From NCBI GenBank assembly GCA_965370805.1, contig CBDUVZ010000002.1:706-64705 (forward strand): 64,000 nucleotides of DNA, given 5' to 3'. The DNA is from an uncultured bacterium. GTDB taxonomy: Bacteria; Hydrothermota; Tepidihabitantia; Tepidihabitantales; Tepidihabitantaceae. Under the pieces are notes generated by a model that was given only the letters and a program-made list of their open reading frames with translations, was not told the origin of the DNA and searched no databases. Shown piece after piece: positions 5,415-51,696 of this stretch. Positions within the stretch are counted from its first letter, which is position 1, and every line of letters begins with the position of its first letter. Position numbers and translations under genes: made by a program.

Positions 5415-6611
5415 TTACCCTCCTACTGTCAGTTTCGAATTCCGAATTCCAATTCCCGAATTCGTGTTTCGGCATTCGGCATTCGGCATTTCCGACCGGT
5501 TTTTCAGCAACTCGAACACGTGCCGTTCATCGCGCACCACCCGGTTCTCGTCAAACAGCTCGACCGCCCGGAGCCGACCTGCCCGGCCCATTCCCCGACC
5601 CAGCGCTTCGTCGGTAACAACCCGGACAATGGCGTCGGCCAGGCCGACCGAGTCCTGGGGCGCCACCAGCAGTCCGGTCACACCGTCGACCACTTCCTCG
5701 CGGCAACCCCGGATGTCGGTTGCCACCACCGGCTTCCCCATCGCCATCGCCTCGATTACGCTCCGCGGCATCCCTTCGCGCCACGACGGCAGGACGAAAA
5801 GCGTAGCCCGGGCCAGCAGGCTTCGGACATCGCGGCGGAAGCCGGGGAAGTCCCACCAAGACCCCACCCCGATTTCCTCCGCCAGTCGCTGAACGTTTCC
5901 GAGGTCCGGTCCGTCGCCGGCAAGCATAAACCGCACGAACGGCACGCGGTCAATCACCCGGCGCGACGCTCGAACCAGTTCGAACACGCCTTTCTCGCGC
6001 ACCACCCGACAGGCACAGAGCACAATCGGCCTGACCGGACCGGCTTCCGGGGGGTGCGGCTTGAATTCCTCCAACTGCACGCCGTTGCCGATGTGAACCG
6101 GGCCCAATCCGGTCCGGTGCGAACGGATGCCGCGCTTCCTTGCCCAGTCATAGTCTTCGTGTGACTGGAGCAGCAACAGGTCGGTCAGGTAGCGACACGC
6201 GAACTCCTCCGCTCCGGCGAACAGCAGCCGCTTCCATCGTCCCATCCGGTCGTGATGGTAGAACCCGTGGGCAGTGTAGACGATATACGGCACCCGGCAG
6301 AGCCGGCCCGCGATGCGACCGACCATCGCCATCACCGGGGTATGAACGTGAAGCACATCCGGCCGGTATCGCTTGAGCAGCGCGATAACACTGAACAGGC
6401 TCTTCACCAGTTCCTTCGGGCCAAGGTTCCGCGTTGTCCGGACCCGGAACATCTCAAACCCGGCATCCTGAACCCGATGTGCTCCTTTTGACCCGGGATC
6501 GAAATCGGCCGCACCCGCGACTTCCCAGCCCGCGTCCCGCAACTCCTCAAGCAGCGCGAACAGCAGGGTTCCAATCGTGCTGTCGAGCGCCGCAAGCTGA
6601 AGGATTCTCAT
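5415..6611 (-). CDS. Glycosyltransferase family 4 (GT-B, group 1)
   Basis: GT4 motifs (EGMPRSVIEAMAMGKPVVATD). ATGA start/stop overlap with the upstream gene. The C-terminal tail reads through a heptamer repeat element. Confidence 0.8.
   Translation of the reverse strand: MRILQLAALDSTIGTLLFALLEELRDAGWEVAGAADFDPGSKGAHRVQDAGFEMFRVRTTRNLGPKELVKSLFSVIALLKRYRPDVLHVHTPVMAMVGRIAGRLCRVPYIVYTAHGFYHHDRMGRWKRLLFAGAEEFACRYLTDLLLLQSHEDYDWARKRGIRSHRTGLGPVHIGNGVQLEEFKPHPPEAGPVRPIVLCACRVVREKGVFELVRASRRVIDRVPFVRFMLAGDGPDLGNVQRLAEEIGVGSWWDFPGFRRDVRSLLARATLFVLPSWREGMPRSVIEAMAMGKPVVATDIRGCREEVVDGVTGLLVAPQDSVGLADAIVRVVTDEALGRGMGRAGRLRAVELFDENRVVRDERHVFELLKNRSEMPNAECRNTNSGIGIRNSKLTVGG
5432..5493. repeat. Heptanucleotide REP-like palindromic element (GAATTCC/CATTCGG units), copy A
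   Basis: Seen directly: gaattccgaattccaattcccgaattcgtgtttcggcattcggcattcggcatt. Confidence 0.7.
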
Positions 6612-7924
6612 CGTTTCATGTTATCCGGGTATAGATGTCTGACCCTTGACACGACCGGCCGGAACTTGCCGTTTGCGCCGCGTGCTATCCGGTTGACCCG
6701 CTCGACCTCAATCGCCACCCCGTGGCCCAGCTTGTCGTGCAGGTTACGGACAAGCCCGGTTTCCGTATCCTGACTGCAGCCCGGCCCGGGTACAATCAGG
6801 ACCCGAATCCGCTTCAGTTCCTCCTGGACAATCTGGCCCTCGACAATGCCCTCAAGGCCCCAGAACACCGGGGCCAGCACGCCGATGTAGCCGCGTCCGG
6901 GCACATAGATAATATCATTGGTGCGCCCCTCGATTCGGTTGATGCGCGGCATATCCCGGCCGCACGCGCACCGCTCCTTCGGACCCGGCACCGCGATGTC
7001 GCCGACCCGATACCGAACCAGGAACATCACCGGGTTGAGAAACGACGTCACGACAACCTCGCCCGGTTCTCCACAGTCTGCGGGCGTTCCATCTTTGCGG
7101 ATGATCTCGCTGATTCCGTACTCGGGATTGACGTGCATCGTACCGTGTTCGCAGTCACACCAGTAACAACTGGGCTCGCTCGACGCGTACTGATTGAAAA
7201 CCCGGCACCCGAACGCCTGCTCCAGTTCCTCCCGGTCTCCCGGCCGCAGGGTTTCGGCGGTCACCATCAGTGCCCTGGGAACCGGCAGCCTGGTCCCGAG
7301 ATTCCGACTCACCCGGGCGATAGCCAGCAGCGCGGACGGATACCCGTCAATCACCTCGGGCCGGAACTCACGCAATGCCTCGGCGTAGAACGGCACGGTT
7401 TCCGGAGAAATGCACATGGCCGAGAACAGCACCGCATTGCCCGGACGGTTTCTGCGCCAGTAGACGTGACTGTGCGAGCCCTGATTTGCCGGAATGATGG
7501 GCCGGCCGGTGAACTGGGCACGCCGGGGATAGAAAGGGTCACTCAGCCCGGCCCAGTGCCGGAGCCTGGCCACGAACGCCCAGCGCCGCGAAAACCCGTC
7601 CCGGGTATCGTAGTGCGTCAGCGCCGCTCCGGTCGTACCGCTGGTGGACGCCTTCCGGCAGTTGCGCAGATCGAATCCCTGGTCCACGAACAAGTGCTCC
7701 TGACCACGCACCTGGGACCTCTCCAGAACCGGCAGGCCACGGATGTCCTCCGGCTCCTTGAAATCCCCGGGAAAGCAGCCGAGTCCCTTCTGCAACTCAC
7801 GGTAATACGGCACACGGGCAAAAGCAACCCGCAGCAACGCCTGCAGCCGGCGAACCTGATACCGGTGATACTCCTCCGCGCTCCACGTCTCCGAACCCAA
7901 CAGGAAATCAAACTCAGCCCGCAT
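6608..7924 (-). CDS. Phenylacetate-CoA ligase family adenylate-forming enzyme (PaaK/CapK/F390-synthetase-like)
   Basis: ASTSGTTG AMP-binding motif. N-terminal SAEEYHRYQVRRLQALL matches PaaK-family N-termini. Start set at ATG 7924 (MRAEFDF). The longer ORF to 8089 translates a repeat element (RHSAFGI), so the start is uncertain. Confidence 0.7.
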   Translation of the reverse strand: MRAEFDFLLGSETWSAEEYHRYQVRRLQALLRVAFARVPYYRELQKGLGCFPGDFKEPEDIRGLPVLERSQVRGQEHLFVDQGFDLRNCRKASTSGTTGAALTHYDTRDGFSRRWAFVARLRHWAGLSDPFYPRRAQFTGRPIIPANQGSHSHVYWRRNRPGNAVLFSAMCISPETVPFYAEALREFRPEVIDGYPSALLAIARVSRNLGTRLPVPRALMVTAETLRPGDREELEQAFGCRVFNQYASSEPSCYWCDCEHGTMHVNPEYGISEIIRKDGTPADCGEPGEVVVTSFLNPVMFLVRYRVGDIAVPGPKERCACGRDMPRINRIEGRTNDIIYVPGRGYIGVLAPVFWGLEGIVEGQIVQEELKRIRVLIVPGPGCSQDTETGLVRNLHDKLGHGVAIEVERVNRIARGANGKFRPVVSRVRHLYPDNMKR

Positions 7925-8023
7925 CCGAGCCTGGTCCGCGCGCCGGTATCGGAAGTCAAACCCCTGGGCCGACACAAACAGGTGCTGCAGCCATACCGGG
8001 GCACGCTGGTAGCAGGCCTCGGC

Positions 8024-8097
8024 AATGCCGAATGCCGAATGCCGAATGCCGGGTTTCAAGTGCCGAATTCGGAAATCGTCATTTGGCATTCGGTATT
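8024..8097. repeat. Heptanucleotide REP-like palindromic element, copy B (both orientations, potential hairpin)
   Basis: atgccgaatgccgaatgccgaatgccgggtttcaagtgccgaattcggaaatcgtcatttggcattcggtat; lies between the CapK-like and CapA-like genes. Confidence 0.7.
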
Positions 8098-9173
8098 TCC
8101 TTTTGTTTCAGCACCGTCGCCGCCGCAATCACATGCTGCCACCTGAATCTGCGGAAAGCCTGCAGCAGACCGCCGGAACGCCCGATGAAGCGCACCGGTG
8201 CGCCCAGCGCCCACTGTCGGACCAGTTCGCGCCGCCAGAGCCGCCGGTAACGGGACTCGGGCCATCCCAACGGCCGGTTCAGCCGTTCCTGCATCCGACG
8301 CCTCCGCCCGGTGTCGTCACGCCTCAAAACATGACCCTCCTGCAGCAGAGGCACCACCGCAACGCGCTCCACGCCCGTTCTGCTCACTTCGCAGATGCCC
8401 ACACCTGTCTGCCGGGAAATACGGGGCCACGGCCGGCTCTCACGACCATTCAGGCCCCCGAACAGGAAATTCCCCAGGCTGTAGAAAATGCAGCCATTCT
8501 CCCAGCGCTCGTACCCCTGCAGGCAGTGCGAATGGTGACCTGCGACCACCCTGGCCCCGGCCTCGACCAGTCGCCTTGCGAGACGCCGCTGTGCCGTGTG
8601 CGGGTATCTGACGAACTCGGTTCCCCAGTGCAGGTTCACCACCACGATATCGACCCGGGCCGCAAGCTCACGCACCTCGGCAACCGCCCGCTCTTCATCA
8701 AGGAAGTTAACATGCACCCCGGCCCGGTCCGGGATACACGGATTGGTCTCCCGGCCGACGTAATTGAGCAGGCCGAAAGTCAGCCCTTGCCGGCTGAGCA
8801 CCAGCGGTCGTTGCGCCGCGGCCGCACTCACCGAGGCCCCGAGGAATCCGAGCCCGTGCTCCTCGAAGAACCGGACTGTATTCCCGAAGCCCTGCTCCAG
8901 GCAATCGTACGCGTGGTTGTTGGCCATGAGCCCGACGTCGAGTCGAAGCGGAAGAATGCAGGTCGCGGCATCGGCAGTAGTGCATACCCGCGGCTGCTTC
9001 AGCACGTTCATTCCGCCGTCGCCCCAGAGCGGCGACTCCCAGTTCCCGACCCGAAGAGCACATTCTCCCAGATGCGAAGCGACTTCGGCCATGTTGCCGG
9101 TCAACGCCGGGTGGTACTGCGGGTCGCAGAAAAGCCCGTTGAGACTGATATCACCCACGAACTGGAGTGTCAC
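8079..9173 (-). CDS. CapA-family protein (PGA-capsule-type metallophosphoesterase-like)
   Basis: CapA-like sequence (FVGDISLNG ... VVNLHWGTEF ... AGHHSHCLQG). Start set at GTG 9173 (VTLQFVGD) with GGAGGG 5 nt upstream. The longer ATG ORF overlaps the upstream gene by 100 nt. Confidence 0.7.
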   Translation of the reverse strand: MTLQFVGDISLNGLFCDPQYHPALTGNMAEVASHLGECALRVGNWESPLWGDGGMNVLKQPRVCTTADAATCILPLRLDVGLMANNHAYDCLEQGFGNTVRFFEEHGLGFLGASVSAAAAQRPLVLSRQGLTFGLLNYVGRETNPCIPDRAGVHVNFLDEERAVAEVRELAARVDIVVVNLHWGTEFVRYPHTAQRRLARRLVEAGARVVAGHHSHCLQGYERWENGCIFYSLGNFLFGGLNGRESRPWPRISRQTGVGICEVSRTGVERVAVVPLLQEGHVLRRDDTGRRRRMQERLNRPLGWPESRYRRLWRRELVRQWALGAPVRFIGRSGGLLQAFRRFRWQHVIAAATVLKQKEIPNAK

Positions 9174-12848: not shown

Positions 12849-13046
12849 TGCTCCGCGAGTCGTCCCTTAGGCCGACTCAGTTATCGGTCTGCTGAGGCAT
12901 AGTCCTCAGTTTTCCATCTCACTTGTCGCATCGCAGATACTGACCGAACGGACCCTCTTGCCGCAAGACTGACGCACTGGATTATATCGACAACGCCCGC
13001 CAATGTCAAACAGTTATGGAGGAAATCCGCCTCCGGGGGTGCGACA

Positions 13047-13080
13047 GCGGAAATGCCGAAGTGCGGATTCGGAAATCGAC
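13047..13080. repeat. Heptanucleotide REP-like element, copy C
   Basis: gcggaaatgccgaagtgcggattcggaaatcgac, in the divergent intergenic region. Confidence 0.55.
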
Positions 13081-13105
13081 CTCGCGGGGAAACACAAATA
13101 CGCAA

Positions 13106-13134
13106 TTGACAGTGCACGCTGAATTGTGTAATAT
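13106..13134 (+). promoter_or_regulatory. Sigma70-type promoter TTGACA-17-TAATAT with extended -10 (TGTG) for the giant T9SS gene
   Basis: Consensus hexamers and spacing read directly. TSS predicted ~13141, giving a ~120-nt leader before AAGGAGG-ATG at 13262. Confidence 0.55.
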
Positions 13135-13261
13135 CCTCTAGCTTGGGCTCTTGGGTTCGGTCCCAGCATCATATCGTTACATCTGTCGAGAAGCGATGGT
13201 ACCCGGCTTCCGGGTTCAAGCTTCTGGGGCGCAGGATGACACTGAAAAGAAGGAGGTCTGC

Positions 13262-16200
13262 ATGTTCATACGAACGCTGCTCACCGGCTGCCTGGTCATT
13301 ACGTTGGCTGGGGCCGTTTCCGTCGAGGCGCCATTCGTCGAAGTCCCTGGTCGTATTATGCCCGATGGCGGCGGTGGGCCGGATGCGTGGGGCTACACCT
13401 GGCTGGACAGCGACACAAGTTGTCCGGGCGCACCGGTCTACAACTGGATCGATATCACCCGGTTGCCGGGAGTCATCCACTGCTCCACACTGGTGGATGA
13501 CAATGTTGCCGGTCCGCTCTCGATGGGGATTGAGTTTCCTCTCTACTGGCATACCTACTCCAATTTCTACCTCGGTTCAAACGGCTACATCTCATTTGAC
13601 GACGACTACAACGCATCGCATCCTTTTCGAGATATCCCCAATGTACTGCACCCCAACAATGTAATCGCCCCGCTGCTGTCCGACCTCAATCCTGGGAATC
13701 TGCCGGCGCGCAAGGGTTACTTCTACTGGCACAACGACACCCGGGATACGTTCATCATCCAGTGCGAAAGCGTTCCGTTCTGGGGCGTGCCTACGAGCAA
13801 CAACACATTTCAGATTATCCTGTCCCAGTCCGACAGCACTATCACCTACCAGTACAAAGAGCAGACCGGGGCGCCTTACCTCGGTTGGACTCCGGGGAAC
13901 GCCACCGTCGGGATTGAGAATATCGTCGGGCTGGTCGGGCTCCGTTACCTCTACGGCAACACGCCGTCACAGAATGACATCCATCCCGGGCTGGCGATTC
14001 GGTTCACGCCGCCGGCCACGACGAGTCACCGATTCCACGACATGATGGTCAAATGGGCGATGAACTCGAAATCCGGGGGGATGTTCCTCCATGACGCCCC
14101 GATTCAGCCGGCCAGTATCAGGGCCTGCTTCCTGAATGCCGGCAACCAGATTGCCTACGACGATTCGATGTTCGCCGAGATCCGGGACCTGGGGGGCACT
14201 CTGGTGTTCGCGGAGTCGGCCTGGACCGAGGAAATGCGGGTCGGCGAGCAAGTCATCCATACCTTCGGTGACTGGACGCCGCCGGACACCGGGTTCTACA
14301 TCCTGAAGGTCAAGTCGCGAATGGTAGGAGACGAATGGGCCGGGGACGACTCCGTGCTCGTCGAGATCCACGTTGTCAACTACACCTTCCCGACCACACT
14401 CTACTACGATGCGGACCGCACCGGTTCGGTCAGCCTGTCCGGGCCTCACGGGTTCGGGACCAAGTTCATTCCGCCCCGCTTCCCGGTCCGTATCGACGAG
14501 CTCTACTACTACTTCACGAGTGCCGGAGCCCAGTGCACTGTCTACGTCTATGACGACGACGGGCCCAACGGCGCGCCCGGGACCGTACTCCTCGACTCGG
14601 TCATTACCACGGTCGCCGGTTGGAACTCAGTCGACATCCAGGCCTGCAGCGTCAACGTCCAGTCCGGCGGCTTCTACGTCTGCTACATGACAAACACCGC
14701 CGGCAACCCCCGCATCGGACTCGACAACACGCTCCCGCACGCCCGGCGCAGTCTCGAGTTCACCGGCCGCTGGGCGGAATTCCGGTGGAATGAAACCCAG
14801 GACTTCCTGATTCGAGCCAAAGTAGGCCAGGGTACGCCCACCCATGATATCGCGGTCACCGAGATGCTCCAGCCCTCCGGCAACCACGACTCCGGCGACG
14901 TTGTCATACCTATCGCCCGCATTCAGAACAACGGCATGTTCCACGAAAACGGGTTCAACGTCACCTTCACGATAACCGGCTCAGGCTACCAGCAGACACG
15001 CACCTGCTCCCTCAACCGCGGCACCTCGGACACCGTCGCCTTCCCCCCCTGGACCGCGATGCCCGGGTACGGCTACGTCCCCCGATGCTCCATCCACCTC
15101 GCCGCCGACGTCAACCCCGTCAACGACACCATCAGCGGCGCACCCTTTGACGTCTACGGCCGCGACGTCGGTACGGCCGCTATCCTCGCGCCCCGCGACA
15201 CTACCAACTACGGGGACGTTATCACCCCAGAGGCAGAAATACTCAACTACGGCAACAGCGCCGAAGACTTCCTCGTCCGCTTCAAGATACCCGGCGCAGG
15301 CTATCAAGACTCGGCCAACGTCCACCTCGGAGTCGGCGAAAGTGACACGGTTACCTTCGACACCTGGCTCGCGGACACGGTCGGAAATCCCCCCGCCATG
15401 ACCTGCTCCACCGAACTCGGCACCGACATGAACCCCGACAACGACCGTGCCACCGCCCCCCTCTTCATCCGCTACGCTGATGTCGGGGCCATCCAAATCC
15501 TCCAGCCCGTCGGCAGCTACGACACCCTCACCACAATCATCCCCTCCGCCCGGGTCACCAACGTCGGCAACGCGCCCGAGACCTTCAAGGCATTCCTCAC
15601 GGTCAACGACCCCACAGTCGATGCCCCTGTCTACTCCGAATCGCTCAATGTCCTACTCCACCCCGACGTCGATTCGACGGTGATCTTCCCGCCCACACGC
15701 TTCCACGTCATCGGCACCCATACGGCCAAATGCTCGGTCCATGTGGGATGGGAACAAGACTGGACCAACAACGTCATCGACAACGACTTCCAGATCATCC
15801 CCACCATCCCGCACAACGTCACCGCCCAACGCATCCTCGCCCCGACCGGGACGATCGACAGCGGCGCAGTAGTAACGCCAAGCGTTATCGTCCGCAACAC
15901 AGGACTCAGCACCGAAACCTTCGACGTCCACTTCACCATCGACCCCGGATACCACGACTCGGCAACCGTCTCCGCCCTCCCCCCCGCCACATCGGACACG
16001 GTAGAATTCGCGGACTGGACCGCCCAACCCCGCGACAGCACAACCGCCACCGCCTGGACCCTACTCATCGGCGACGAAATGCCGGAAGACGATACGACCA
16101 GCCTCCGGCTCCTCGTCCAGGTCCGCGACGTCGGGGTTGAGCAGGTCATCTCACCGGTGGGTACGCTGCCGGTGGATACCATCGTCTATCCCGAGTGCCG

Positions 16201-18058
16201 AGTCCGCAACTACGGCAACACGACCGAGACCTTCGACGTCGAATTCCGCATCGGCCACTACCTCGGCACGGCCACCGCGACCGCACTCGCACCCGGCAAC
16301 ACCCAAGACCTCGTGATGAGCCAGCCCTACACCACCCAAGTCGGCGTATGGCTCGACCGCGCCCGCACCACCCTCACCGGTGACATCAACCCCGCCAACG
16401 ACCTCGCACTCGACACCCTCTGGGTCCCCGGCCCCGTCACCCACGACGTCGGCGTCGACGAAATACTCGCCCCAGTCGGCACCGTCAACCCCGGCCAGAC
16501 CATCACCCCCAGCGCCCGCGTCGCCAACTACGGCGACCAGACCGAGACCTTCCGGGCTTACTTCGCAATCTACGACACGACCACCGACGCCCAAGTCTAC
16601 GACGAATCGCTCCACGTCACCCTCGCCCCAGTCACGGACACAACCCTCCCCTACCCCGACGTCAGCTTCACACTCCAAGGCCCCTACACCACCCACTGCT
16701 CCACCTACCTCCCCACCGACCAGAACCAACTCAACAACGTCAAAACCGGCCAATTCCACGTCAAACTCCAACTCCCCTGGGACCCCGGCTGGCACGAAGT
16801 CCAACCCATACCACTCCAGCCCAGCGGCAAACCAGTCAAACGCGGCGCTTGGGCCACCCACAACCACGGCGACGACCTCATCTACACCGCCAAAGGCTAC
16901 AAAACCACCGACTACTACTCCTACAACCCCCTCGCCAACACCTGGAATACCCTCACCGGCATGCCCTACCAACGCCACACCAACCCCAAATGGGCCAGAA
17001 AAGTCCCCCGCAAAGGCTCCAAAGGCGCAGCCGACGGCGACAACTACATCTACGTCACCCAAGGCAACAACACCCTCGGATTCTGGCGCTACGACATCGA
17101 CCTCGACTCCTGGACAACACTCCACGACATCCCCGCCGGACCCAACAACAAGAAAGTCAAAGGCGGCACCGACCTCGCCTACCTAGTCCGCGACGACGGC
17201 CAAGCCTACATCTACCTCCTCAAAGGCTACCGCACCGAATTCTACCGCTACCACATCACAGCCAACACCTGGCAAACCCTCGCCCCCGCCCCCACCGGCA
17301 AACGCGCCAAATGGGGCAGAGGCTCCTGGCTCATCGCCCAAAACCAAACCGCCACCACCCTCTACGCCCACAAAGCCAAATACAACGAACTCTGGTCCTA
17401 CGACGTCCCCGCCGACTCCTGGGACCAACAACTCACCGGCATGCCCTACGTCGGAATGCAAGGCCGCAAAAAGAAATCCAAAGACGGCGGCTCCGCCGAC
17501 TGGTACGACAGCGAAATCTACGCCCTCAAAGGCGGCAACACCAACGAATTCTGGAAGTACACCCCAACCACCGACACCTGGACCGAGCTCGATTCGATGC
17601 CGACGATGGGCTCCACCGGCAGGAAGAAACGAGTCAAGTACGGCGCTGACCTCGTCAACTACGCCGGCTACCCCGCGTTCTTCTCGCTCAAAGGCAACAA
17701 GACGCGCGAAATGTGGCGCTACTACTTCGGCTCGGCGGTGCTGGCTGTTCAGCCTCGCCCCGGTCGCGGCGGCGTCCTGGCCGAACCGTCATCGGGCATT
17801 CGGCAATCGTCATTCGACATTACCCCCAACCCGCTTGCGGGTGGATTCGCCACGCTGCGCTACAGCCTGCCCAGGGTCGGACACGCAACGGCGAGCATCT
17901 ACGACGCTACGGGTCGTGCCGTCACACAACAGACGGTACTTGCCGGTCGTACCGGGGCTGTCAATCTCGATCTGCGTTCGCTCAGCGCGGGAGTGTACCT
18001 GGTGCGGTTCGAAGCCGGCGGCTTCAGCACCACGAGAAAGCTTGTACTGCAGCGTTAG
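13262..18058 (+). CDS. Giant secreted T9SS cargo protein (~1598 aa): signal peptide, N-terminal choice-of-anchor/MAM-like domain, ~9 CARDB-like Ig repeats, 4 Lys-rich repeats, T9SS C-terminal sorting domain
   Basis: Start at ATG 13262 (MFIRTLLTGCLVITLAGA signal peptide) after AAGGAGG. Repeats of N[YH]G...ETF...F.I..GY.DSA.V.L..G.SDTV.F..W are CARDB-like. C-terminus ...GVYLVRFEAGGFSTTRKLVLQR is T9SS-CTD-like. Confidence 0.8.
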   Translation: MFIRTLLTGCLVITLAGAVSVEAPFVEVPGRIMPDGGGGPDAWGYTWLDSDTSCPGAPVYNWIDITRLPGVIHCSTLVDDNVAGPLSMGIEFPLYWHTYSNFYLGSNGYISFDDDYNASHPFRDIPNVLHPNNVIAPLLSDLNPGNLPARKGYFYWHNDTRDTFIIQCESVPFWGVPTSNNTFQIILSQSDSTITYQYKEQTGAPYLGWTPGNATVGIENIVGLVGLRYLYGNTPSQNDIHPGLAIRFTPPATTSHRFHDMMVKWAMNSKSGGMFLHDAPIQPASIRACFLNAGNQIAYDDSMFAEIRDLGGTLVFAESAWTEEMRVGEQVIHTFGDWTPPDTGFYILKVKSRMVGDEWAGDDSVLVEIHVVNYTFPTTLYYDADRTGSVSLSGPHGFGTKFIPPRFPVRIDELYYYFTSAGAQCTVYVYDDDGPNGAPGTVLLDSVITTVAGWNSVDIQACSVNVQSGGFYVCYMTNTAGNPRIGLDNTLPHARRSLEFTGRWAEFRWNETQDFLIRAKVGQGTPTHDIAVTEMLQPSGNHDSGDVVIPIARIQNNGMFHENGFNVTFTITGSGYQQTRTCSLNRGTSDTVAFPPWTAMPGYGYVPRCSIHLAADVNPVNDTISGAPFDVYGRDVGTAAILAPRDTTNYGDVITPEAEILNYGNSAEDFLVRFKIPGAGYQDSANVHLGVGESDTVTFDTWLADTVGNPPAMTCSTELGTDMNPDNDRATAPLFIRYADVGAIQILQPVGSYDTLTTIIPSARVTNVGNAPETFKAFLTVNDPTVDAPVYSESLNVLLHPDVDSTVIFPPTRFHVIGTHTAKCSVHVGWEQDWTNNVIDNDFQIIPTIPHNVTAQRILAPTGTIDSGAVVTPSVIVRNTGLSTETFDVHFTIDPGYHDSATVSALPPATSDTVEFADWTAQPRDSTTATAWTLLIGDEMPEDDTTSLRLLVQVRDVGVEQVISPVGTLPVDTIVYPECRVRNYGNTTETFDVEFRIGHYLGTATATALAPGNTQDLVMSQPYTTQVGVWLDRARTTLTGDINPANDLALDTLWVPGPVTHDVGVDEILAPVGTVNPGQTITPSARVANYGDQTETFRAYFAIYDTTTDAQVYDESLHVTLAPVTDTTLPYPDVSFTLQGPYTTHCSTYLPTDQNQLNNVKTGQFHVKLQLPWDPGWHEVQPIPLQPSGKPVKRGAWATHNHGDDLIYTAKGYKTTDYYSYNPLANTWNTLTGMPYQRHTNPKWARKVPRKGSKGAADGDNYIYVTQGNNTLGFWRYDIDLDSWTTLHDIPAGPNNKKVKGGTDLAYLVRDDGQAYIYLLKGYRTEFYRYHITANTWQTLAPAPTGKRAKWGRGSWLIAQNQTATTLYAHKAKYNELWSYDVPADSWDQQLTGMPYVGMQGRKKKSKDGGSADWYDSEIYALKGGNTNEFWKYTPTTDTWTELDSMPTMGSTGRKKRVKYGADLVNYAGYPAFFSLKGNKTREMWRYYFGSAVLAVQPRPGRGGVLAEPSSGIRQSSFDITPNPLAGGFATLRYSLPRVGHATASIYDATGRAVTQQTVLAGRTGAVNLDLRSLSAGVYLVRFEAGGFSTTRKLVLQR
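17788..17820. repeat. Heptanucleotide REP-like element, copy D, in frame inside the CDS at the CTD junction
   Basis: catcgggcattcggcaatcgtcattcgacatt encodes SSGIRQSSFDI immediately before the CTD start (TPNPLAGGF). Confidence 0.6.
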
Positions 18059-21616: not shown

Positions 21617-22276
21617 TTGAACGGCATCGCTGAGATTATTGACCATACCCTGCTGAAGCCGGACGTCACGCCGGCGGCGATTGAACGGTTGTGTGCCGAG
21701 GCGAAGGAGTACGGTTTCTGCACCGTTTGCATCAACCCGTGTCATGTACCGCATGCGGTCCGGCTGCTGAAGGGCTCCGATGTCGGGGTATGCACGGTTA
21801 TCGGGTTCCCGCTCGGGGCGACACTGACCAGGACCAAGGCACTTGCCACCGGGACTGCGGTCCGGGCCGGGGCCGATGAGCTGGATATGGTGCTGAACCT
21901 GGGTTGGCTCAAGAGCGGTGAGAACCAGGCAGTACTGGAGGATATTGAAGCGGTGGTTGAGGCAGCCCAGGGCAAACCGGTGAAGGTGATTATTGAAACC
22001 TGCCTGCTCACCGCGGAGGAAAAGGAGAGGGCAACACGGCTGGTCTGTGACGCCGGGGCTGCATTCGTGAAGACATCCACCGGTTTCTCGTGCGGCGGGG
22101 CAACCGTTGATGACGTGAAGCTTCTCACGAAGGTCGCGAACGGTGCAATCGGTGTGAAGGCCGCGGGCGGAATCAGGGACCTGGCGACCGCCCGGACAAT
22201 GGTCAAGGCGGGCGCGACCCGACTCGGCACGAGTTCAGGCGTGAAGATAGTGGAAGAAGAGAAACACAAGCAATAA
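21617..22276 (+). CDS. deoC: Deoxyribose-phosphate aldolase
   Basis: DeoC hallmarks: [37 protein letters not shown] start. Confidence 0.85.
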
Positions 22277-22279
22277 TGG

Positions 22280-22370
22280 ATTGCGAATGGCGTTCAGCGA
22301 TGCAGGAGCAGATGCCATTGGATGGCTCCGTGACGAACTCGGCGTTCGCAACTCGCAATTCGACATTCCC
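22280..22370. repeat. Heptanucleotide REP-like element, copy E (both orientations)
   Basis: gcgaatggcg ... cgttcgcaactcgcaattcgacattccc, between deoC and kbl. Confidence 0.55.
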
Positions 22371-22384
22371 ATAAGGAGGACTGA

Positions 22385-23635
22385 ATGGCATTCGGCAAAA
22401 TGAAGGGGTTCCTTCAGGAAGAACTGAAATCGGTCAGGGAGGCCGGGCTCTTCAAGGAGGAACGGTATATCCTCGGCGAGCAGGCCGCGGACATCAGGGT
22501 TGAGTACCCGGAGGGCGCCAAGCCCGAGGACGTGTTGAACTTCTGCGCCAATAACTACCTCGGGCTGTCGAGTCACCCGGAGGTGATGAAAGCATCCAAG
22601 GAAGGTCTGGACAAGTGGGGGTTCGGGATGTCCTCGGTACGCTTCATCTGCGGCACCCAGGGCCTGCACCGGACCCTGGAGCAGAAGATAGCCGAGTTCC
22701 TCGGTATGGACGATGCAATTCTGTATTCGTCCTGCTTTGACGCGAACGGCGGCCTGTTTGAGGCGCTGCTCACCAAGGAAGACTGCATTGTCACGGACAA
22801 GCTCAACCACGCATCGGTGATTGACGGAATCCGGCTCTGCAAGGCCCAGCGCAAGATAGTCAACCATGCGGACATGGCCGACCTTGAGGCGAAGCTGAAG
22901 GAAGCCCGCGCCGACGGCGTGCGCTTCATCGTCATCGCGACCGACGGCGTGTTCTCAATGGACGGCGACATCGCCCGGCTGAACGAAATTTGCCCGCTGG
23001 CCGAGAAGTACGACGCGCTGGTGATGGTCGACGACTCCCATTCGACCGGCTTCATGGGCAAGACCGGCCGCGGGACGCACGAGTACCGCGACGTGATGGG
23101 CAAGGTGGACATCATCACAACCACGTTCGGCAAGGCGCTCGGCGGGGCGTCCGGCGGGTGCACTGCGGCGCGACAGGAAATCGTCGATATGCTGCGGCAG
23201 CGTTCCCGGCCGTACTTGTTCTCAAACAGCCTCGCGCCGGTGGTCGCCGCGGCGACGGTCAAGGTAATCGAGCTGTTGTCGGCGACGACCGAGCGGCGTG
23301 ACAAGCTCGAAGCGAACACGAAGCATTTCCGCAAGGCGATGACCGATGCCGACTTCGATATCGTGCCGGGCGACCATCCAATCGTGCCGATAATGCTCTA
23401 CAACGCCAAGCTGGCCCAGGACATGGCGAAGGACCTGTACTTCGAGGGCATCTACGTCACCGGGTTCTTCTACCCGGTGGTGCCCAAAGGCCAGGCCCGG
23501 ATTCGGGTCCAGCTTTCCGCAGGCCACGAGAAAGAGCACTTGGATAAAGCGATTGCCGCGTTCACCAAGATCGGCAAGAAGTACGAAATCCTCGGCAAGA
23601 CCAAGGACGAAATCATCGAGAAATACGGGCTGTAG
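22385..23635 (+). CDS. kbl: Glycine C-acetyltransferase (2-amino-3-ketobutyrate CoA ligase)
   Basis: Class II aminotransferase / Kbl family with the PLP-Lys region [22 protein letters not shown]. Confidence 0.85.
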
Positions 23636-42441: not shown

Positions 42442-43818
42442 TCAGCGCTGGATGACGACCTTGTGGACCGCTAACCGCTCACCGCTATCCGCTTCCCGCC
42501 GCAAGAAATACACGCCCGGGGAGAGATGCCGGATGTCGTTCTCGCCCGGCGCGAGTTCCGCGACCTTCCGGCCGGAGATGTCGAGGAGGACGCACGACGC
42601 ACCACGCTTGACGCCGGATGCTTCAGGCAGGAACAGTACGTCGCGTACAATTGCGGCCGGAAGCTGTCTGCCATTCGTCATTCGCAATTCGGCATTCGGC
42701 ATGTCCTGGATTCCCGGCGGCACGCTGTCGCGGATGACCGAGATGCTGGAACTCTCATAGTTGCCCACGTACGTCCGGTTCTGCATCGGGTTCCAGGTCA
42801 TAGCGTACGGGTACTCCCCGACCCCAATCGTCTTGACCACGACATTGCTCGCACCGTCAATCACAGTCACGTCGTCGCTTTCCAGATTGGCGCAGTACAC
42901 CTTGTTGTTCGTCTTGTTGAACACCAGTGCAGAAGGTTCAGAGCCGGCCGCAACCGTCGCAATAACCGTATTCAGAGCGCCGTCAATCACGGTCACACTC
43001 CCGCTGCCCGAGTTTGCGCAATAGACCCTGTTCTCGGTCCGGTTGTAGCACAACGCCTTGGGCTGGATTCCCACGCTGACCGTCGCAATCACGCTGTCGG
43101 ATGCACCGTCGATAACTGTTACGGTCGAATCGAGATTGGTGGTGGTTCCGCTGTTGGCGCAGTACATCCTGTTGTCCTGCGAGTTGTAGCAGAAAGCACA
43201 GGCATGAAACCCCGCGGGCACGGCCACTATGACGCTGTCAGCCGCGCCGTCAATCACTGAGACGGTCCGGGAGTACGGATTCGCGCAATAGACCTTGTTG
43301 TCGGCCGGGTTGTAAGCCAGGGCAAAGGGATAGGCTCCGACGTCCACAGTTGCAATCACGCCGCTCGTGGCACCGTCTATCACTGAAACGGTGTTGTCCA
43401 GCGCGTTCGCGCAGTAGACTTTGTTGTCGGCGGGATTCCAACACAAGGCCCGGGGCTGGCGCCCGACTGCCACGGTCGCAATCACGGCATTGGTCTCACC
43501 GTCAATGACAACAACTGTATCAATGTCACTGTCAACATCGTGGGTGCAATACACCCGATTGTCGGTTGAGTTGTGGCACAGCACATAAGGGTAGCGCATC
43601 GTCGGGATGGTTGCGATTATGCTGTTTGACGCGCCGTCGATGACGGCAATGTTGTCGCGCAGGTTGTTCGAGCAGTAAACCCTGTTACCGGTTGGATTGT
43701 AGCACAGCCCCACCGGAAAGGAATTGGACTGCAACTGTATCGTCGTCTCCAGCCACTGGCCGGACGCGACCGACGAAGTCAGAATGCAGAGCGCAGAAAC
43801 CAAAACACAGGATTTCAT
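42442..43818 (-). CDS. YVTN-family beta-propeller repeat protein with T9SS C-terminal sorting domain
   Basis: Eight repeats of ...N.VYCAN...VSVIDGA...VIATV.VG..P.AL. Signal peptide. CTD ...GVYFLRREADSGERLAVHKVVIQR. Confidence 0.8.
   Translation of the reverse strand: MKSCVLVSALCILTSSVASGQWLETTIQLQSNSFPVGLCYNPTGNRVYCSNNLRDNIAVIDGASNSIIATIPTMRYPYVLCHNSTDNRVYCTHDVDSDIDTVVVIDGETNAVIATVAVGRQPRALCWNPADNKVYCANALDNTVSVIDGATSGVIATVDVGAYPFALAYNPADNKVYCANPYSRTVSVIDGAADSVIVAVPAGFHACAFCYNSQDNRMYCANSGTTTNLDSTVTVIDGASDSVIATVSVGIQPKALCYNRTENRVYCANSGSGSVTVIDGALNTVIATVAAGSEPSALVFNKTNNKVYCANLESDDVTVIDGASNVVVKTIGVGEYPYAMTWNPMQNRTYVGNYESSSISVIRDSVPPGIQDMPNAELRMTNGRQLPAAIVRDVLFLPEASGVKRGASCVLLDISGRKVAELAPGENDIRHLSPGVYFLRREADSGERLAVHKVVIQR
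42670..42702. repeat. Heptanucleotide REP-like element, copy F, in frame just upstream of the CTD
   Basis: Reverse complement of gccattcgtcattcgcaattcggcattcggcatg encodes MPNAELRMTNG. Confidence 0.6.
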
Positions 43819-43827
43819 GATAGCTCG

Positions 43828-46494
43828 TTAGCGTTGAATGACTATCCTGGCGGACTTGGCGGTTGATTCGTTTCGGATGAAGTAGACGCCGGATCTGAGA
43901 TGCCGGATGTCATTCGGGCCCGGCAGAAGGTCCATTACCTTCCGGCCGGAGATGTCGAGCAAAGACAATGCCGAATGCCGAGTGTCGAATGACGAATGCG
44001 GAAGAAGAAGTACGTGGCGCACGATGGTTGCGGTCAAGGGTCGGCGGATTGTAGCCACCGGCTTGTCTTCGGTTCCGACGTAGTATTCCACCCGGTACAC
44101 CGGGTAGACCGCGAGGTTGCCGGCAAACGGGGTGCCGAGCCCGAGGTTGTTGCTGGTCGCGGCCTGGGTTTCGAGCGGGACCGCGCAGAGGAAGTTCTCG
44201 CCCATCCAGAGCGTGTCCGTGCCGAAGGACCAGTCCCACTGCCACTGGATCGAGTCCGTGCCCTGGCCGGATGTCACCTGGGTCCATTCCCAGGCCTGGT
44301 GCGCGGTCTGGACCTGGACTATAGCGCCGAGCATCCGGGTCGAGTTCGGGGTCCAGCGGTTCACCGCTTTGCCGGTAATGACCGGGTCGCGCATCTGGGT
44401 CGTGTCGCCGGGCAGATGGTCGAACTCGGCTTTGACCCCGGTGTTCCACACCCGCACCGGGTTGATTACCGTTACACTGCTGTCGTTGGAGTTCGCGCAG
44501 TAAATCCTGTTGGTCACCGGGTTCACCGCAATCGCGTACGGCGCATTTCCTGCCGGCACGAGAACCGTGCTGTTCGTGGCTCCGTCGATCACCATTACGC
44601 TGTCGCTGCCGTAGTTCGCCACGTACACTTTGTTGGTTATCGGGTTCACCGCAATCGCGTACGGTGCGTCTCCTGCCAGCACGAAGGTGGTGCTGTTCGT
44701 TGCCCCGTCAATCACGGTCAGATCGTCGCTGCCGCCGTTCGCCACGTACACTTTGTTGGTGACCGGGTTCACCGCCACGGCCCGTGGTGCGTCCCCGACC
44801 GGCACGAGCGTGGTGTCGTTGGTAGTTCCGTCAATCACGGTCACGTTATCGCTCTGGAAGTTCGCGCAGTAGATCCTGTTGGTCACCGGGTTCACCGCAA
44901 TCGCGTACGGTTCCGTCCCGGCTGGCACGAGCAAGGTGTCGTTCGTGACACCATCGATGACCGTTACGTTATCACTCCAACTGTTCGCTACGTACACCTT
45001 GTTGGTCGCCGGGTTCACCGCCACCGCACGGGGCATGGTTCCGGTTGGAACCAGAGTCGTATCGAGGGTCGCTCCGTCAATCACGGTCACATTGCCGCTG
45101 CTGCCGTTCGCTACGTACACCTTGTTCGTTGCCGGGTTCACCGCAACGGCCCATGGCCCGTCCCCGGCCGGCACGAGCGTGGTGTCCATCGTGACACCAT
45201 CGATTACTGTCACGTTGTCACTCAGGGAATTCGGCACGTACGCCCGGTTCGTCACCGGGTTCACCGCAATCGCGCGCGGGTTGTTTCCGGCCGGCACGAG
45301 CGTGGTGTCGCCGGTGGCGCAGTCGATTACGGTTACGTTGTTGCTCGTCACGTTCACCACGTAGGTCTCGTTTGTCACCGGGTTCACCGCCAGTGCCCGT
45401 GGCCGGGCCAGCGTACGTACTCTCGTGGTGCTGTACGTGATACCGTCGATCACGGTCACGTTGTCGCTGCCGCTGTTTACCACGTACACTTTGTTGGTCA
45501 CCGGGTTCACCGCAACCGCGCACGGTTCGGTTCCAACCGGCAGAAGCGTGGTGTCGTTTGTCGCTCCGTCGATCACCGTCACATTGTCGCCGTGCCAGTT
45601 CGTCAGGTACACTTTGATGGTCACCGGGATCACCGCAACCGCGCAGGGCTGGTTTGCCGTCGGGACGAGCGCAGTGTCGTTCGTGGCCCCGTCAATCACC
45701 GTCACATTGCTGCTGTAAAAGTTCGCGCAGTAAATCCGGTTCGTTACCGGGTTCACCGCAATCGCATACGGTCCATTTTTTGCCCGCACGGTTGTTGTGT
45801 TGTTGGTGATTCCGTCAATCACCGTCACGTTGTGGTCGTTGAGATTCGCCACGTAAATCCTGTTGGTCACCGGGTTCACCGCCACGGCCCAGGGTTTGTC
45901 GCCGACCGGCACGAACGTGGTGTCGTTGGTTGCCCCGTCAATCACGGTTACGTTGTCGCTGCCGCTGTTTACCACGTACACTTTGTCGGTCACCGGGTTC
46001 ACCGCAATCGCGCGCGGCTCTGTTCCGACCGGCACGAGCGTGGTGTCGTTCGTGGCCCCGTCGATTACCGTTACATTGTTGCTGCTGTCATTCGCCACGT
46101 ACACCTTGTTGGTCACCGGGTTCACCGCCACGGCGTGCGGCGCGTCTCCGGCCGGCACGAGCGTAGTGTCGTTCGTCGCTCCGTCAATCACCGTTACGTT
46201 GTCGCTGCCGCGGTTCGCCACGTACACCTTGTTGGTCACCGGGTTCACCGCAACCGCATACGGCTCTAATCCTGCCCGCACGCGGATGGTGCTGTTCGTA
46301 GCCCCGTCAATCACCGTTACGTCGTTGCTGCCCGCGTTCACCACGTACACCTTGTTGGTCACCGGGTTCACCGCAACCGCCTGCGGGTTTTCTCTGACAT
46401 TGACGGTCGCCGTAACCCAGTCCGCCGTTGCCGGCGCTGCCGTGATTGCCAGCAGCACCAGGGCTGCGGTCAGGGCATGTCTTACGTTCTGCAT
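43828..46494 (-). CDS. Large YVTN-family beta-propeller repeat protein (~17 repeats) with T9SS C-terminal sorting domain
   Basis: Signal peptide MQNVRHALTAALVLLAITAAPATA. 41-aa repeats VNPVTNKVYVAN..SDNVTVIDGATNDTTLVPAG..P.AVA. CTD ...GVYFIRNESTAKSARIVIQR. Confidence 0.8.
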   Translation of the reverse strand: MQNVRHALTAALVLLAITAAPATADWVTATVNVRENPQAVAVNPVTNKVYVVNAGSNDVTVIDGATNSTIRVRAGLEPYAVAVNPVTNKVYVANRGSDNVTVIDGATNDTTLVPAGDAPHAVAVNPVTNKVYVANDSSNNVTVIDGATNDTTLVPVGTEPRAIAVNPVTDKVYVVNSGSDNVTVIDGATNDTTFVPVGDKPWAVAVNPVTNRIYVANLNDHNVTVIDGITNNTTTVRAKNGPYAIAVNPVTNRIYCANFYSSNVTVIDGATNDTALVPTANQPCAVAVIPVTIKVYLTNWHGDNVTVIDGATNDTTLLPVGTEPCAVAVNPVTNKVYVVNSGSDNVTVIDGITYSTTRVRTLARPRALAVNPVTNETYVVNVTSNNVTVIDCATGDTTLVPAGNNPRAIAVNPVTNRAYVPNSLSDNVTVIDGVTMDTTLVPAGDGPWAVAVNPATNKVYVANGSSGNVTVIDGATLDTTLVPTGTMPRAVAVNPATNKVYVANSWSDNVTVIDGVTNDTLLVPAGTEPYAIAVNPVTNRIYCANFQSDNVTVIDGTTNDTTLVPVGDAPRAVAVNPVTNKVYVANGGSDDLTVIDGATNSTTFVLAGDAPYAIAVNPITNKVYVANYGSDSVMVIDGATNSTVLVPAGNAPYAIAVNPVTNRIYCANSNDSSVTVINPVRVWNTGVKAEFDHLPGDTTQMRDPVITGKAVNRWTPNSTRMLGAIVQVQTAHQAWEWTQVTSGQGTDSIQWQWDWSFGTDTLWMGENFLCAVPLETQAATSNNLGLGTPFAGNLAVYPVYRVEYYVGTEDKPVATIRRPLTATIVRHVLLLPHSSFDTRHSALSLLDISGRKVMDLLPGPNDIRHLRSGVYFIRNESTAKSARIVIQR
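43966..44001. repeat. Heptanucleotide REP-like element, copy G, in frame inside the CTD
   Basis: caatgccgaatgccgagtgtcgaatgacgaatgcgg encodes HSSFDTRHSAL, replacing the EASGVKRGASCV segment of the paralog 42442-43818. Confidence 0.6.
44450..46400. repeat. Intragenic tandem array of ~16 near-identical ~123-bp units encoding the YVTN repeats
   Basis: Recurring strings such as gggttcaccgcaatcgcgtacgg and ccgtcaatcacggtcac at ~123-nt spacing, seen directly. Confidence 0.7.
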
Positions 46495-50770: not shown

Positions 50771-50784
50771 TAGACGAGGTGCGA

Positions 50785-51696
50785 ATGTCGACTGACAAGA
50801 GGAAAGGGTCCAAGGGTCCAAGGGTTCCAGGGTTCCAGGGTGAGTTGCGAGTGCCGAATGCGGGAATCAGGATTGAGAACCTCGGCAAGGTGTTCCAGGG
50901 CCGGGATGGCGGAAGTGTCGCCGCACTCGACGGCATCGACCTGGCAATCGAGCCGGGGAGCTTCACGTGTCTTGTCGGGCCGACCGGGTGCGGCAAGACT
51001 ACGCTGTTGCGGATTGTAGCCGGGCTGCTCATGCCGAGTTCCGGGATGGTAACGGTCGGCGAAAAGCCGGTGACCGGGCCGCGACAGAATACCGGGATGG
51101 TGTTCCAGCATTACTCGCTCTTCCCCTGGCGGAGCGTGCTCGACAACGTCGCGTTCGGACTGGAGATGCGCGGGACCGGGAAGCGCGAGCGGCATGCCCG
51201 GGCAAAGGAACTGCTGGATACGGTCGGGCTTGCGCGGTTTGCCCGGAGCCGGCCGTACGAGCTTTCGGGCGGGATGCAGCAGCGGGTGGCAATCGCGCGG
51301 TCCCTGGCGACCGACCCGGACCTGCTGTTGATGGACGAGCCGTTCGGGGCCCTGGACGAGCGCACGAGGCACCGGTTGCAGGACGAACTGCTGTCGGTCT
51401 GGGAGCGCACCGGCAAGACGGTCCTGTTCGTTACCCACAACATCGACGAAGCGGTCTACCTCGGGCAGCGGGTGGTAGTGATGGCGGACCGGCCCTCGCG
51501 GATTGCCGACGATTTTCCGGTTGGTATCGCGCGGCCGCGCGACCGGGTCGCACCGGAATTCGTCGAAGCGCTCTTACGGGTCCGGACTGTGCTGGAAGAA
51601 GTAATGAAAGAAAGCAGCAGGCAGACAGAGAAAACCAAAGGAGGAGAAGATGAAGAAAGGCCTGATACTGATGGCCATTCTTGCTGTGGCCGTTAG
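50785..51696 (+). CDS. ABC transporter ATP-binding protein (NitT/TauT family)
   Basis: Walker A GPTGCGKTT, signature LSGGMQQRVAIARSL and Walker B LLLMDEPFGALD. The N-terminal 22 codons translate a repeat element, so the true start may be GTG/TTG near 50845-50851. Confidence 0.85.
   Translation: MSTDKRKGSKGPRVPGFQGELRVPNAGIRIENLGKVFQGRDGGSVAALDGIDLAIEPGSFTCLVGPTGCGKTTLLRIVAGLLMPSSGMVTVGEKPVTGPRQNTGMVFQHYSLFPWRSVLDNVAFGLEMRGTGKRERHARAKELLDTVGLARFARSRPYELSGGMQQRVAIARSLATDPDLLLMDEPFGALDERTRHRLQDELLSVWERTGKTVLFVTHNIDEAVYLGQRVVVMADRPSRIADDFPVGIARPRDRVAPEFVEALLRVRTVLEEVMKESSRQTEKTKGGEDEERPDTDGHSCCGR
50806..50866. repeat. Short tandem repeats (GGGTCCAAG x2, GGGTTCCAG x2) fused to a heptamer REP-like unit, copy H
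   Basis: gggtccaagggtccaagggttccagggttccagggtgagttgcgagtgccgaatgcggg, seen directly. Confidence 0.6.

Follow-up and report, generated by a model that had tools for sequence, protein, structure and literature searches.

The 64-kb stretch of DNA analysed here (the window) belongs to the chromosome of a candidate division WOR-3 bacterium. It carries a minus-strand polysaccharide/capsule operon, murJ, deoC-kbl, recA-recX and two ABC systems. Eight of its proteins have type IX secretion C-terminal domains. Homologues of the glycine C-acetyltransferase and the ABC ATPase at 65-79% identity are named candidate division WOR-3, and closer relatives reach 95%. No tRNA or tmRNA was found in the window, and a search of its whole length at Rfam gathering thresholds gave no match.

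Dispersed over the window are arrays in which a 7-base unit, GCCGAAT/ATTCGGC, and its one-base variants are repeated head-to-tail. The unit occurs at eight loci, and copy count and distribution refer to these 64 kb of genome. The original prediction named nine heptamer sites; ATTCGNN/NNCGAAT tandems are present at eight of them, but the ninth, at 54762-54800, holds an octamer array only. The arrays are as follows.

5432-5493, unstranded: composite array, about four degenerate CGAATTC units, then TTCGGCA x3.3 (perfect at 5468-5490; TRF, pattern matches)
8022-8097, unstranded: the flagged copy, opposed heptamer arrays with a central palindrome (TRF, patterns, translation, Pfam)
13047-13080, unstranded: weak composite copy GAAATGCCGAAGTGCGGATTCGGAAATCG with one 1-mismatch match, between divergent promoters
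17788-17820, + strand: in-frame array ATTCGGC AATCGTC ATTCGAC, coding SSGIRQSSFDI
22277-22370, unstranded: inserted segment of ~100 bp, with units of CGAAT type in its left part and of ATTCG type in its right part (22344-22369)
42467-42493, - strand: unrelated heptamer array ACCGCTA x3.9, within the last codons of protein J, coding SGERLAV in its sorting domain
42670-42702, - strand: in-frame array of four exact-core units, coding MPNAELRMTNG
43966-44004, - strand: in-frame array in the protein K gene (43828-46494, - strand), coding PHSSFDTRHSAL within the C-terminal sorting domain
50778-50866, + strand: ABC permease/ATPase junction, a nested composite in which heptamer units (50778-50793, 50846-50866) surround an octamer array
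50804-50841, + strand: octamer array AAGGGTCC x4.8, nested between heptamer units
54761-54795, + strand: octamer-only array AGGGGTCC x4.4, coding RVPEFEGSRGPGG, without heptamer units (TRF)

Tandem heptamers exceed chance expectation

The motif ATTCGNNATTCG, which sets two ATTCG cores 7 nt apart, occurs exactly 8 times in the window against 0.11 expected from dinucleotide-preserving shuffles. With one mismatch allowed there are 25 matches against 3.92 expected, and three cores with at most two mismatches match 18 times against 0.14. The matches group at 5436-5492, 8022-8092, 13067-13078, 17798-17816, 22344-22369, 42673-42698 and 43972-44004, and also at 50782-50793 and 50848-50859; the four one-mismatch matches that lie away from arrays equal the chance expectation. 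TRF reports perfect period-7 arrays at 5468-5490 (x3.3) and 8024-8051 (x4.0). Perfect tracts do not exceed four units, and most arrays are imperfect or degenerate, typically with 3-4 units.

Copies are thus commoner than composition predicts, as the proposed family required. Solitary heptamer words outside arrays are not enriched in the window, so the family exists only as tandem runs. This lack of enrichment of isolated words is what a chance similarity or a codon-usage artefact would lead one to expect, but such an origin has a negligible probability: the tandems stand 6- to >100-fold above the dinucleotide-shuffle expectation, and arrays occupy the matching ABC junction in three related contigs (see below).

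The unit GCCGAAT is not a palindrome, contrary to the original description, and arrays are found in either orientation. At four of the eight heptamer sites (5432, 8024, 13047 and 22280), (NNCGAAT)n is followed by (ATTCGNN)n to give an inverted composite. Flank-against-flank BLAST revealed nothing common to the copies except a paralogous coding stretch between proteins J and K, and the flank comparison showed no conserved 5' tetranucleotide. No conserved terminal inverted repeats or other shared ends were found among the copies, and no clear target-site duplication was seen when the deoC-kbl insertion was compared with empty sites. A MITE is ruled out on these two grounds.

Five of nine sites lie at gene boundaries

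Five of the nine sites do lie at gene boundaries, as proposed, and the remaining four are within genes. Of the boundary arrays, only 13047 and 22280 are strictly intergenic; the other three run into annotated coding ends. In all, seven of the nine copies overlap annotated coding sequence. Five copies have a start codon at most ~25 nt away or are placed between divergent promoters.

Within the polysaccharide operon, the array at 5432-5493 codes for ~21 residues (~373-393) near the C-terminus of the 398-aa glycosyltransferase B (5415-6611, - strand) and stops 20 nt upstream of the ATG (5412) of a DegT aminotransferase gene. The flagged copy consists of four perfect AATGCCG units (8024-8051), a short spacer that includes the central palindrome GCCGAATTCGG (8062-8072) and, with the orientation reversed, four degenerate ATTCGNN units (8067-8094; ATTCGGA AATCGTC ATTTGGC ATTCGGT). 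Its units supply the stop codon of the PGA_cap gene, a TGA at 8079-8081 (- strand), as well as the ATG (8087-8089) and the ~23 first codons of the CapK-like ligase gene (6608-8089, - strand, annotated as 493 aa). CapK-like ligase homologues start ~8 residues before a conserved CYQ...WLQ motif; in-frame starts here occur only within the array.

A promoter scan places the copy at 13047 between two predicted, divergent sigma-70-like promoters. The one on the - strand (13009-12981), a perfect TTGACA-17-TATAAT, would serve the polysaccharide operon, and the one on the + strand (13106-13134), TTGACA-17-TAATAT, the large secreted protein. Segment 22277-22370 follows the deoC stop (22276) and precedes the ribosome-binding site and ATG (22385) of kbl. 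In the annotation, the nested composite at 50778-50866 makes up an N-terminal extension of the ABC ATPase (303 aa, start 50785).

This placement brings to mind a cis-regulatory platform, in which a heptad-recognising DNA- or RNA-binding protein, or a ribosome standby or uncoupling spacer, tunes translation initiation or transcription of the downstream gene. In its favour, four arrays (5432, 8024, 22280 and 50778) reach to within ~20 nt of the start or ribosome-binding site of the gene downstream, or cover it, the copy at 13047 is placed between divergent promoters, and one unit is reused at many loci. However, the arrays show no preferred orientation relative to transcription, with mRNAs carrying ATTCG-form units, CGAAT-form units or both, and the strand bias for which a check had been suggested is absent; moreover, three copies lie within secreted-protein genes, far from starts, and no candidate binding protein was identified. 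We consider a regulatory role of this kind unlikely, although it retains appreciable weight.

Most arrays do not fold as REP elements would

The segment 8015-8105 folds with -43 kcal/mol and a z-score of -5.25 on the + strand and of -2.76 on the transcribed - strand, and 5425-5500 reaches -2.82 on the - strand, all relative to shuffles. Folding of 13040-13090 and of 22275-22375 is not significant against shuffles. The expectation that several copies carry both orientations and form hairpins is therefore borne out in its first part, with four sites carrying both, but only 8015-8105 and 5425-5500 beat the shuffles; the other seven of the nine sites fold no better or contain a single orientation. 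A terminator scan of the window found no T-run after an array.

REP units are imperfect palindromes of ~20-40 nt that form stem-loops and lie outside genes, and RAYTs are Y1 (IS200/IS605-like) genes typically flanked by REPs. The arrays resemble REP/BIME elements in being small, dispersed and mostly located at gene junctions; some copies hold both orientations, and two can form strong intercistronic hairpins within one operon. Were they such palindromes, mobilised by a REP-associated tyrosine transposase, they might stabilise mRNAs or attenuate transcription, as originally put forward. The architecture argues otherwise: the arrays are head-to-tail runs of a non-palindromic heptamer without conserved ends, their flanks are unshared, most copies overlap coding sequence, and the folding advantage is confined to the two copies named above. 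Among the window ORFs that were scanned with Pfam, none showed a Y1 transposase (Y1_Tnp)/RAYT or any other transposase or integrase domain. A REP-like identity is thus extremely unlikely.

In-gene arrays cluster at C-terminal sorting domains

Four arrays, three of heptamers and one of octamers, lie inside genes. All four are in frame and all are located at a C-terminal sorting domain, in keeping with the in-frame tolerance noted in the original prediction. SSGIRQSSFDI directly precedes the Por_Secre_tail domain (residues 1559-1632) of a 1598/1635-aa CARDB/Kelch protein (13151-18058). MPNAELRMTNG lies in the linker that leads to the C-terminal sorting domain of protein J, a beta-propeller protein (42442-43818, - strand). 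PHSSFDTRHSAL occupies a variable loop of the protein K domain, where the paralogue J has EASGVKRGASCV. The octamer-encoded RVPEFEGSRGPGG is found just before the FlgD_ig/PNPF C-terminal domain of an FG-GAP protein (53387-55078). Four of the eight sorting-domain proteins carry an array in a region amounting to ~2% of the coding sequence, a concentration that was noted post hoc but is striking.

A perfect array is free of stops in all six frames. Its translation cycles through IRHSAFG or RMPNAEC, and an ATG is available in GAATGCC. Arrays can therefore be read through and are able to donate starts and stops, and the absence of a stop in any of the six frames explains the in-frame tolerance. The property is enabling, not remarkable: half of the heptamer classes, and 61% of those with four G+C, share it, and we rejected six-frame stop-freedom as a special adaptation. 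A general link between array-encoded peptides and secretion domains was likewise unsupported. A search with two such peptides against 5.8 billion proteins returned only 47 short hypothetical ORFs, none of which has a sorting domain.

Several further repeats and compositional features accompany these genes. A second family with an 8-nt period comprises AAGGGTCC, nested in a heptamer array, and AGGGGTCC, in frame before a secretion domain. ACCGCTA x3.9 at 42467-42493 shows that heptamer arrays of other units are also present in the window. The protein K gene contains, at 44490-46380, ~15 tandem 123-bp units (also seen as 369 bp x5), which code for 41-residue YVTN/NHL-type beta-propeller repeats (...NPVTNKVYVAN...DNVTVIDG...) of this 888-aa secreted protein. 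In the CARDB/Kelch gene (13151-18058; 1635 aa), the GC skew of the gene's own coding strand is strongly negative (-0.21 to -0.29) and the AT skew positive, the reverse of what the window's other genes show.

Filled and empty junctions in close relatives

We compared the deoC-kbl junction with that in eight related contigs, whose KBL proteins are 95, 92 or 84% identical. In all eight, the deoC TGA abuts the kbl ATG (AAGGAGGAyTGAATG) and there is no array. The AAGGAGGAyTGAATG motif is kept in the window, with ~100 extra bases that contain the array upstream of it and a new TAA stop for deoC. The relatives with 84% identical KBL served as the outgroup to polarise the change. Because their junction is empty, the array is an insertion in the lineage of the window. 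The ribosome-binding site is thus unchanged in close relatives that lack the array, which speaks against the regulatory reading.

A further difference lies in kbl codons 2-4 (22388-22396), where the start in the window is ATGGCATTCGGC (Met-Ala-Phe-Gly) and all eight relatives have ATGGCATACGGC (Tyr). With ATGGCATTCGGC, the window gains its sole 9-nt match to the array unit other than those in the arrays themselves. This match lies 15 nt downstream from the inserted array, and the change could reflect conversion from, or seeding of, this neighbour.

The ABC permease/ATPase junction is found in more than one filled state. In L142, whose ATPase is 88% identical, stop and start overlap (TAGTG) and no array is present. 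In L144 (88%), the heptamer array is pure: GAGAATG CCGAATT ACGAATG CCGAATG. In L143 (92%), heptamer units stand at either end of an unrelated ~100 bp insert. In the window and in L145 (GCA_030612625.1; 85% nucleotide identity over 4.7 kb), the heptamer units are split by an octamer array. The arrays in L143, L144 and L145 establish that the family exists outside the window, and the idea of a genuine dispersed family, not confined to the window, stands. These comparisons show that, among close relatives, heptamer arrays have been gained at some junctions and not at others and that they attract nested insertions. The insert of L143 (395-500) is A-rich, has internal repeats of its own (ACAGATAAACACAGATGAACAC; ACAGAATACAGGAGGCAGGATACAGG) and is annotated as a 30-residue N-terminal extension; the nested octamer copy of the window recurs nearly identically at 10038-10075 of L145.

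Between the window and L145, positions 50795-50874 are 98.75% identical, against a mean of 84.7% (sd 11%), and the copy number at the junction is the same. The value is no outlier, since some other 80-nt coding windows match it. The array is thus no less stable than the best-conserved coding sequence, and it is not hypervariable. Its conservation fits a selected function as well as neutrality: identity of 98.75% over an 85% background would be expected of a regulatory site, but equally identical 80-nt windows are found elsewhere.

The same comparison bears on whether the arrays are contingency loci, i.e. hypermutable repeats that phase-vary secreted proteins and capsule genes by shifting the reading frame or promoter spacing. 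A 7-bp unit does shift the frame, and arrays occur in surface or secreted-protein genes and in the polysaccharide operon. Yet an array identity of 98.75% against the 84.7% mean argues against hypermutability, and copy number and sequence at the ABC junction are kept in a genome that is only 85% identical. In addition, the arrays are short (3-4 units) and mostly imperfect, and the in-frame copies are degenerate, so that slippage is suppressed. Phase variation is very unlikely on this evidence.

A metagenome scan with the CapK-like ligase yielded relatives of at most 59% identity, with GC of 0.38-0.76 and without arrays, which are uninformative for the 5432 and 8024 junctions.

The period, not the ATTCG core, is general

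Runs of four ATTCGNN units were sought in 185,579 species genomes, and 120 loci among the matches listed were analysed. The matches listed come from Verrucomicrobiota, Planctomycetota, Acidobacteriota, Chloroflexota, Bacteroidota, Cyanobacteria, Xanthomonadales and others, mostly with other bases at NN. We rejected ATTCGNN as a special cross-phylum element on the strength of control cores and of other heptamers at the same loci. In viral contigs, at least 120 loci were found for ATTCG, and two control cores of the same composition were found at 63 and 73. The 120 listed loci contain 79 further perfect heptamer arrays of other units, whereas perfect arrays of periods 5, 6, 8, 9, 10 and 11 number 0, 11, 6, 1, 0 and 0, respectively; with the seeds included, 190 perfect arrays of period 7 compare with 18 in total for periods 5, 6 and 8-11. 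Hence what is general is the 7-nt period, not the ATTCG core. Of 101 arrays of other phyla to which crude ORF models were applied, 63% are at most 40 nt from the start or end of a long ORF, compared with 17% of random positions, and 15% are interior to an ORF, compared with 62%. In several of the loci (L001-L120), one unit is present on both strands or flanks are identical (e.g. L111).

Among the longer simple repeats of many genomes, those of the heptanucleotide class (long simple sequence repeats, LSSRs) are described as the most abundant (Mrazek et al., 2007, cited after PMC4679880 and PMC4692102). According to the same two sources, the 7-nt period dominates these LSSRs and the cyanobacterial STRRs in large, non-pathogen, often GC-rich genomes, and the class, which includes the STRRs of heterocystous cyanobacteria, has several unit families per genome, as here. 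Heptamer periodicity had been called unusual for REP elements; it defines a different class, the heptanucleotide LSSR/STRR (PMC4679880, PMC4692102). As presented in these sources, that class is defined statistically and not mechanistically; the evidence for insertion at junctions and for nesting comes from the present analysis.

Two described families are close in form. TAACTGA direct repeats occur in marine Beggiatoaceae, some Cyanobacteria and Bacteroidetes (MacGregor, 2015, PMC4679880). Like the arrays of the window, they are short dispersed runs of one heptamer (there 2-6 units), have no evident mobilising enzyme and, within ORFs, lie at the extreme start or end, outside functional domains; their placing is similar too, mostly a few nt before start codons and often over the upstream stop. 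They differ in that TAACTGA has stops in three forward frames, whereas GCCGAAT is stop-free in six and readable in either orientation, and in that a single indirect repeat is reported for TAACTGA, against inverted composites at four of eight sites here (PMC4679880). The host here is a WOR-3 bacterium, and linkers of type IX secretion domains are not among the TAACTGA positions given in PMC4679880.

GGGAATC and GGGGA(C/T)T heptameric repeats are found in Xanthomonas and Nostoc (Rehm et al., 2015, PMC4692102). They are similarly highly dispersed, with a modal length of about four units, and over-represented between co-oriented ORFs, at most ~50 bp from starts or stops; the arrays are transcribed (PMC4692102). 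In contrast to the copies described here, most of which overlap coding ends or linkers, they are under-represented in coding sequence, and their G-tracts form G-quadruplexes in vitro (PMC4692102). GCCGAAT has no G-tract, and the lack of any run of three or more G rules out a quadruplex-forming heptamer of the Xanthomonas/Nostoc type.

The regulatory reading gains a precedent from these families. Nostoc heptamers near starts or promoters alter reporter expression (bioRxiv 10.1101/2022.06.06.494920), and a regulatory role has been proposed both for them and for the Beggiatoaceae TAACTGA repeats (PMC4679880); a binding factor has been identified in neither.

Origin and consequences of the arrays

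Four features of the STRR/LSSR class are seen in the window: a period of 7, many loci, sharing of the unit only and a preference for ORF boundaries. We therefore think that the arrays probably constitute a lineage-specific family of dispersed heptanucleotide simple-sequence arrays of this class in a WOR-3 chromosome. Copies survive almost only at spots that tolerate insertion, namely junctions of coupled genes, first or last codons and the linker or loop of type IX C-terminal domains.

Since one unit is present at eight or more unrelated sites, slippage alone does not suffice and a dispersal step is required. The arrays may be generated and spread by DNA-level copying, through replication slippage together with either gene conversion between arrays or template switching; selection may afterwards filter their distribution. 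Most copies would then be near-neutral passengers with side effects that depend on position: formerly coupled genes may become separated, and short peptide tails or linkers may be added. Where opposed arrays abut, as at 8024 and 5432, the intercistronic hairpins that they create could stabilise or attenuate the operon transcript.

A bolder version holds that an undescribed sequence-directed copy-and-paste process, which could be microhomology-primed template switching or an unknown enzyme, preferentially deposits stop-free arrays at coupled junctions and at boundaries between passenger and type IX C-terminal domains, where they are exploited for operon uncoupling, new N- or C-terminal peptides or sorting-domain swapping. 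We regard this version as improbable and favour the near-neutral family of dispersed simple-sequence arrays.

Heptanucleotide arrays are the commonest longer tandem repeat class in many free-living bacteria, and the uncultivated phylum WOR-3 newly joins the hosts of dispersed ones. Clean comparisons of filled and empty sites are uncommon; the present set provides a split stop/start pair at deoC-kbl and an ABC junction in three states (empty, simple and nested). The arrays also illustrate that a stop-free unit can be absorbed into proteins, here into linkers of type IX secretion substrates. For gene annotation, such arrays yield artificial N-terminal extensions, C-terminal tails and spurious short ORFs.

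Other heptamers were observed in the related contigs. In L145, AGTCAGA x4.7 (13862-13894) lies exactly at the junction of two small genes, and thus several heptamer families coexist in the WOR-3 lineage. The contig L136 (KBL 92% identical) opens with a ~1.1 kb stretch (1-1140) that looks non-coding and across which a 241-aa 'gene' is called; the stretch contains heptamer arrays of GATTGCG/CAGATTG at 402-424 and 937-953, and the motif cttTGTTCTCTTcGTGCCTTTGTGGT is present in it twice.
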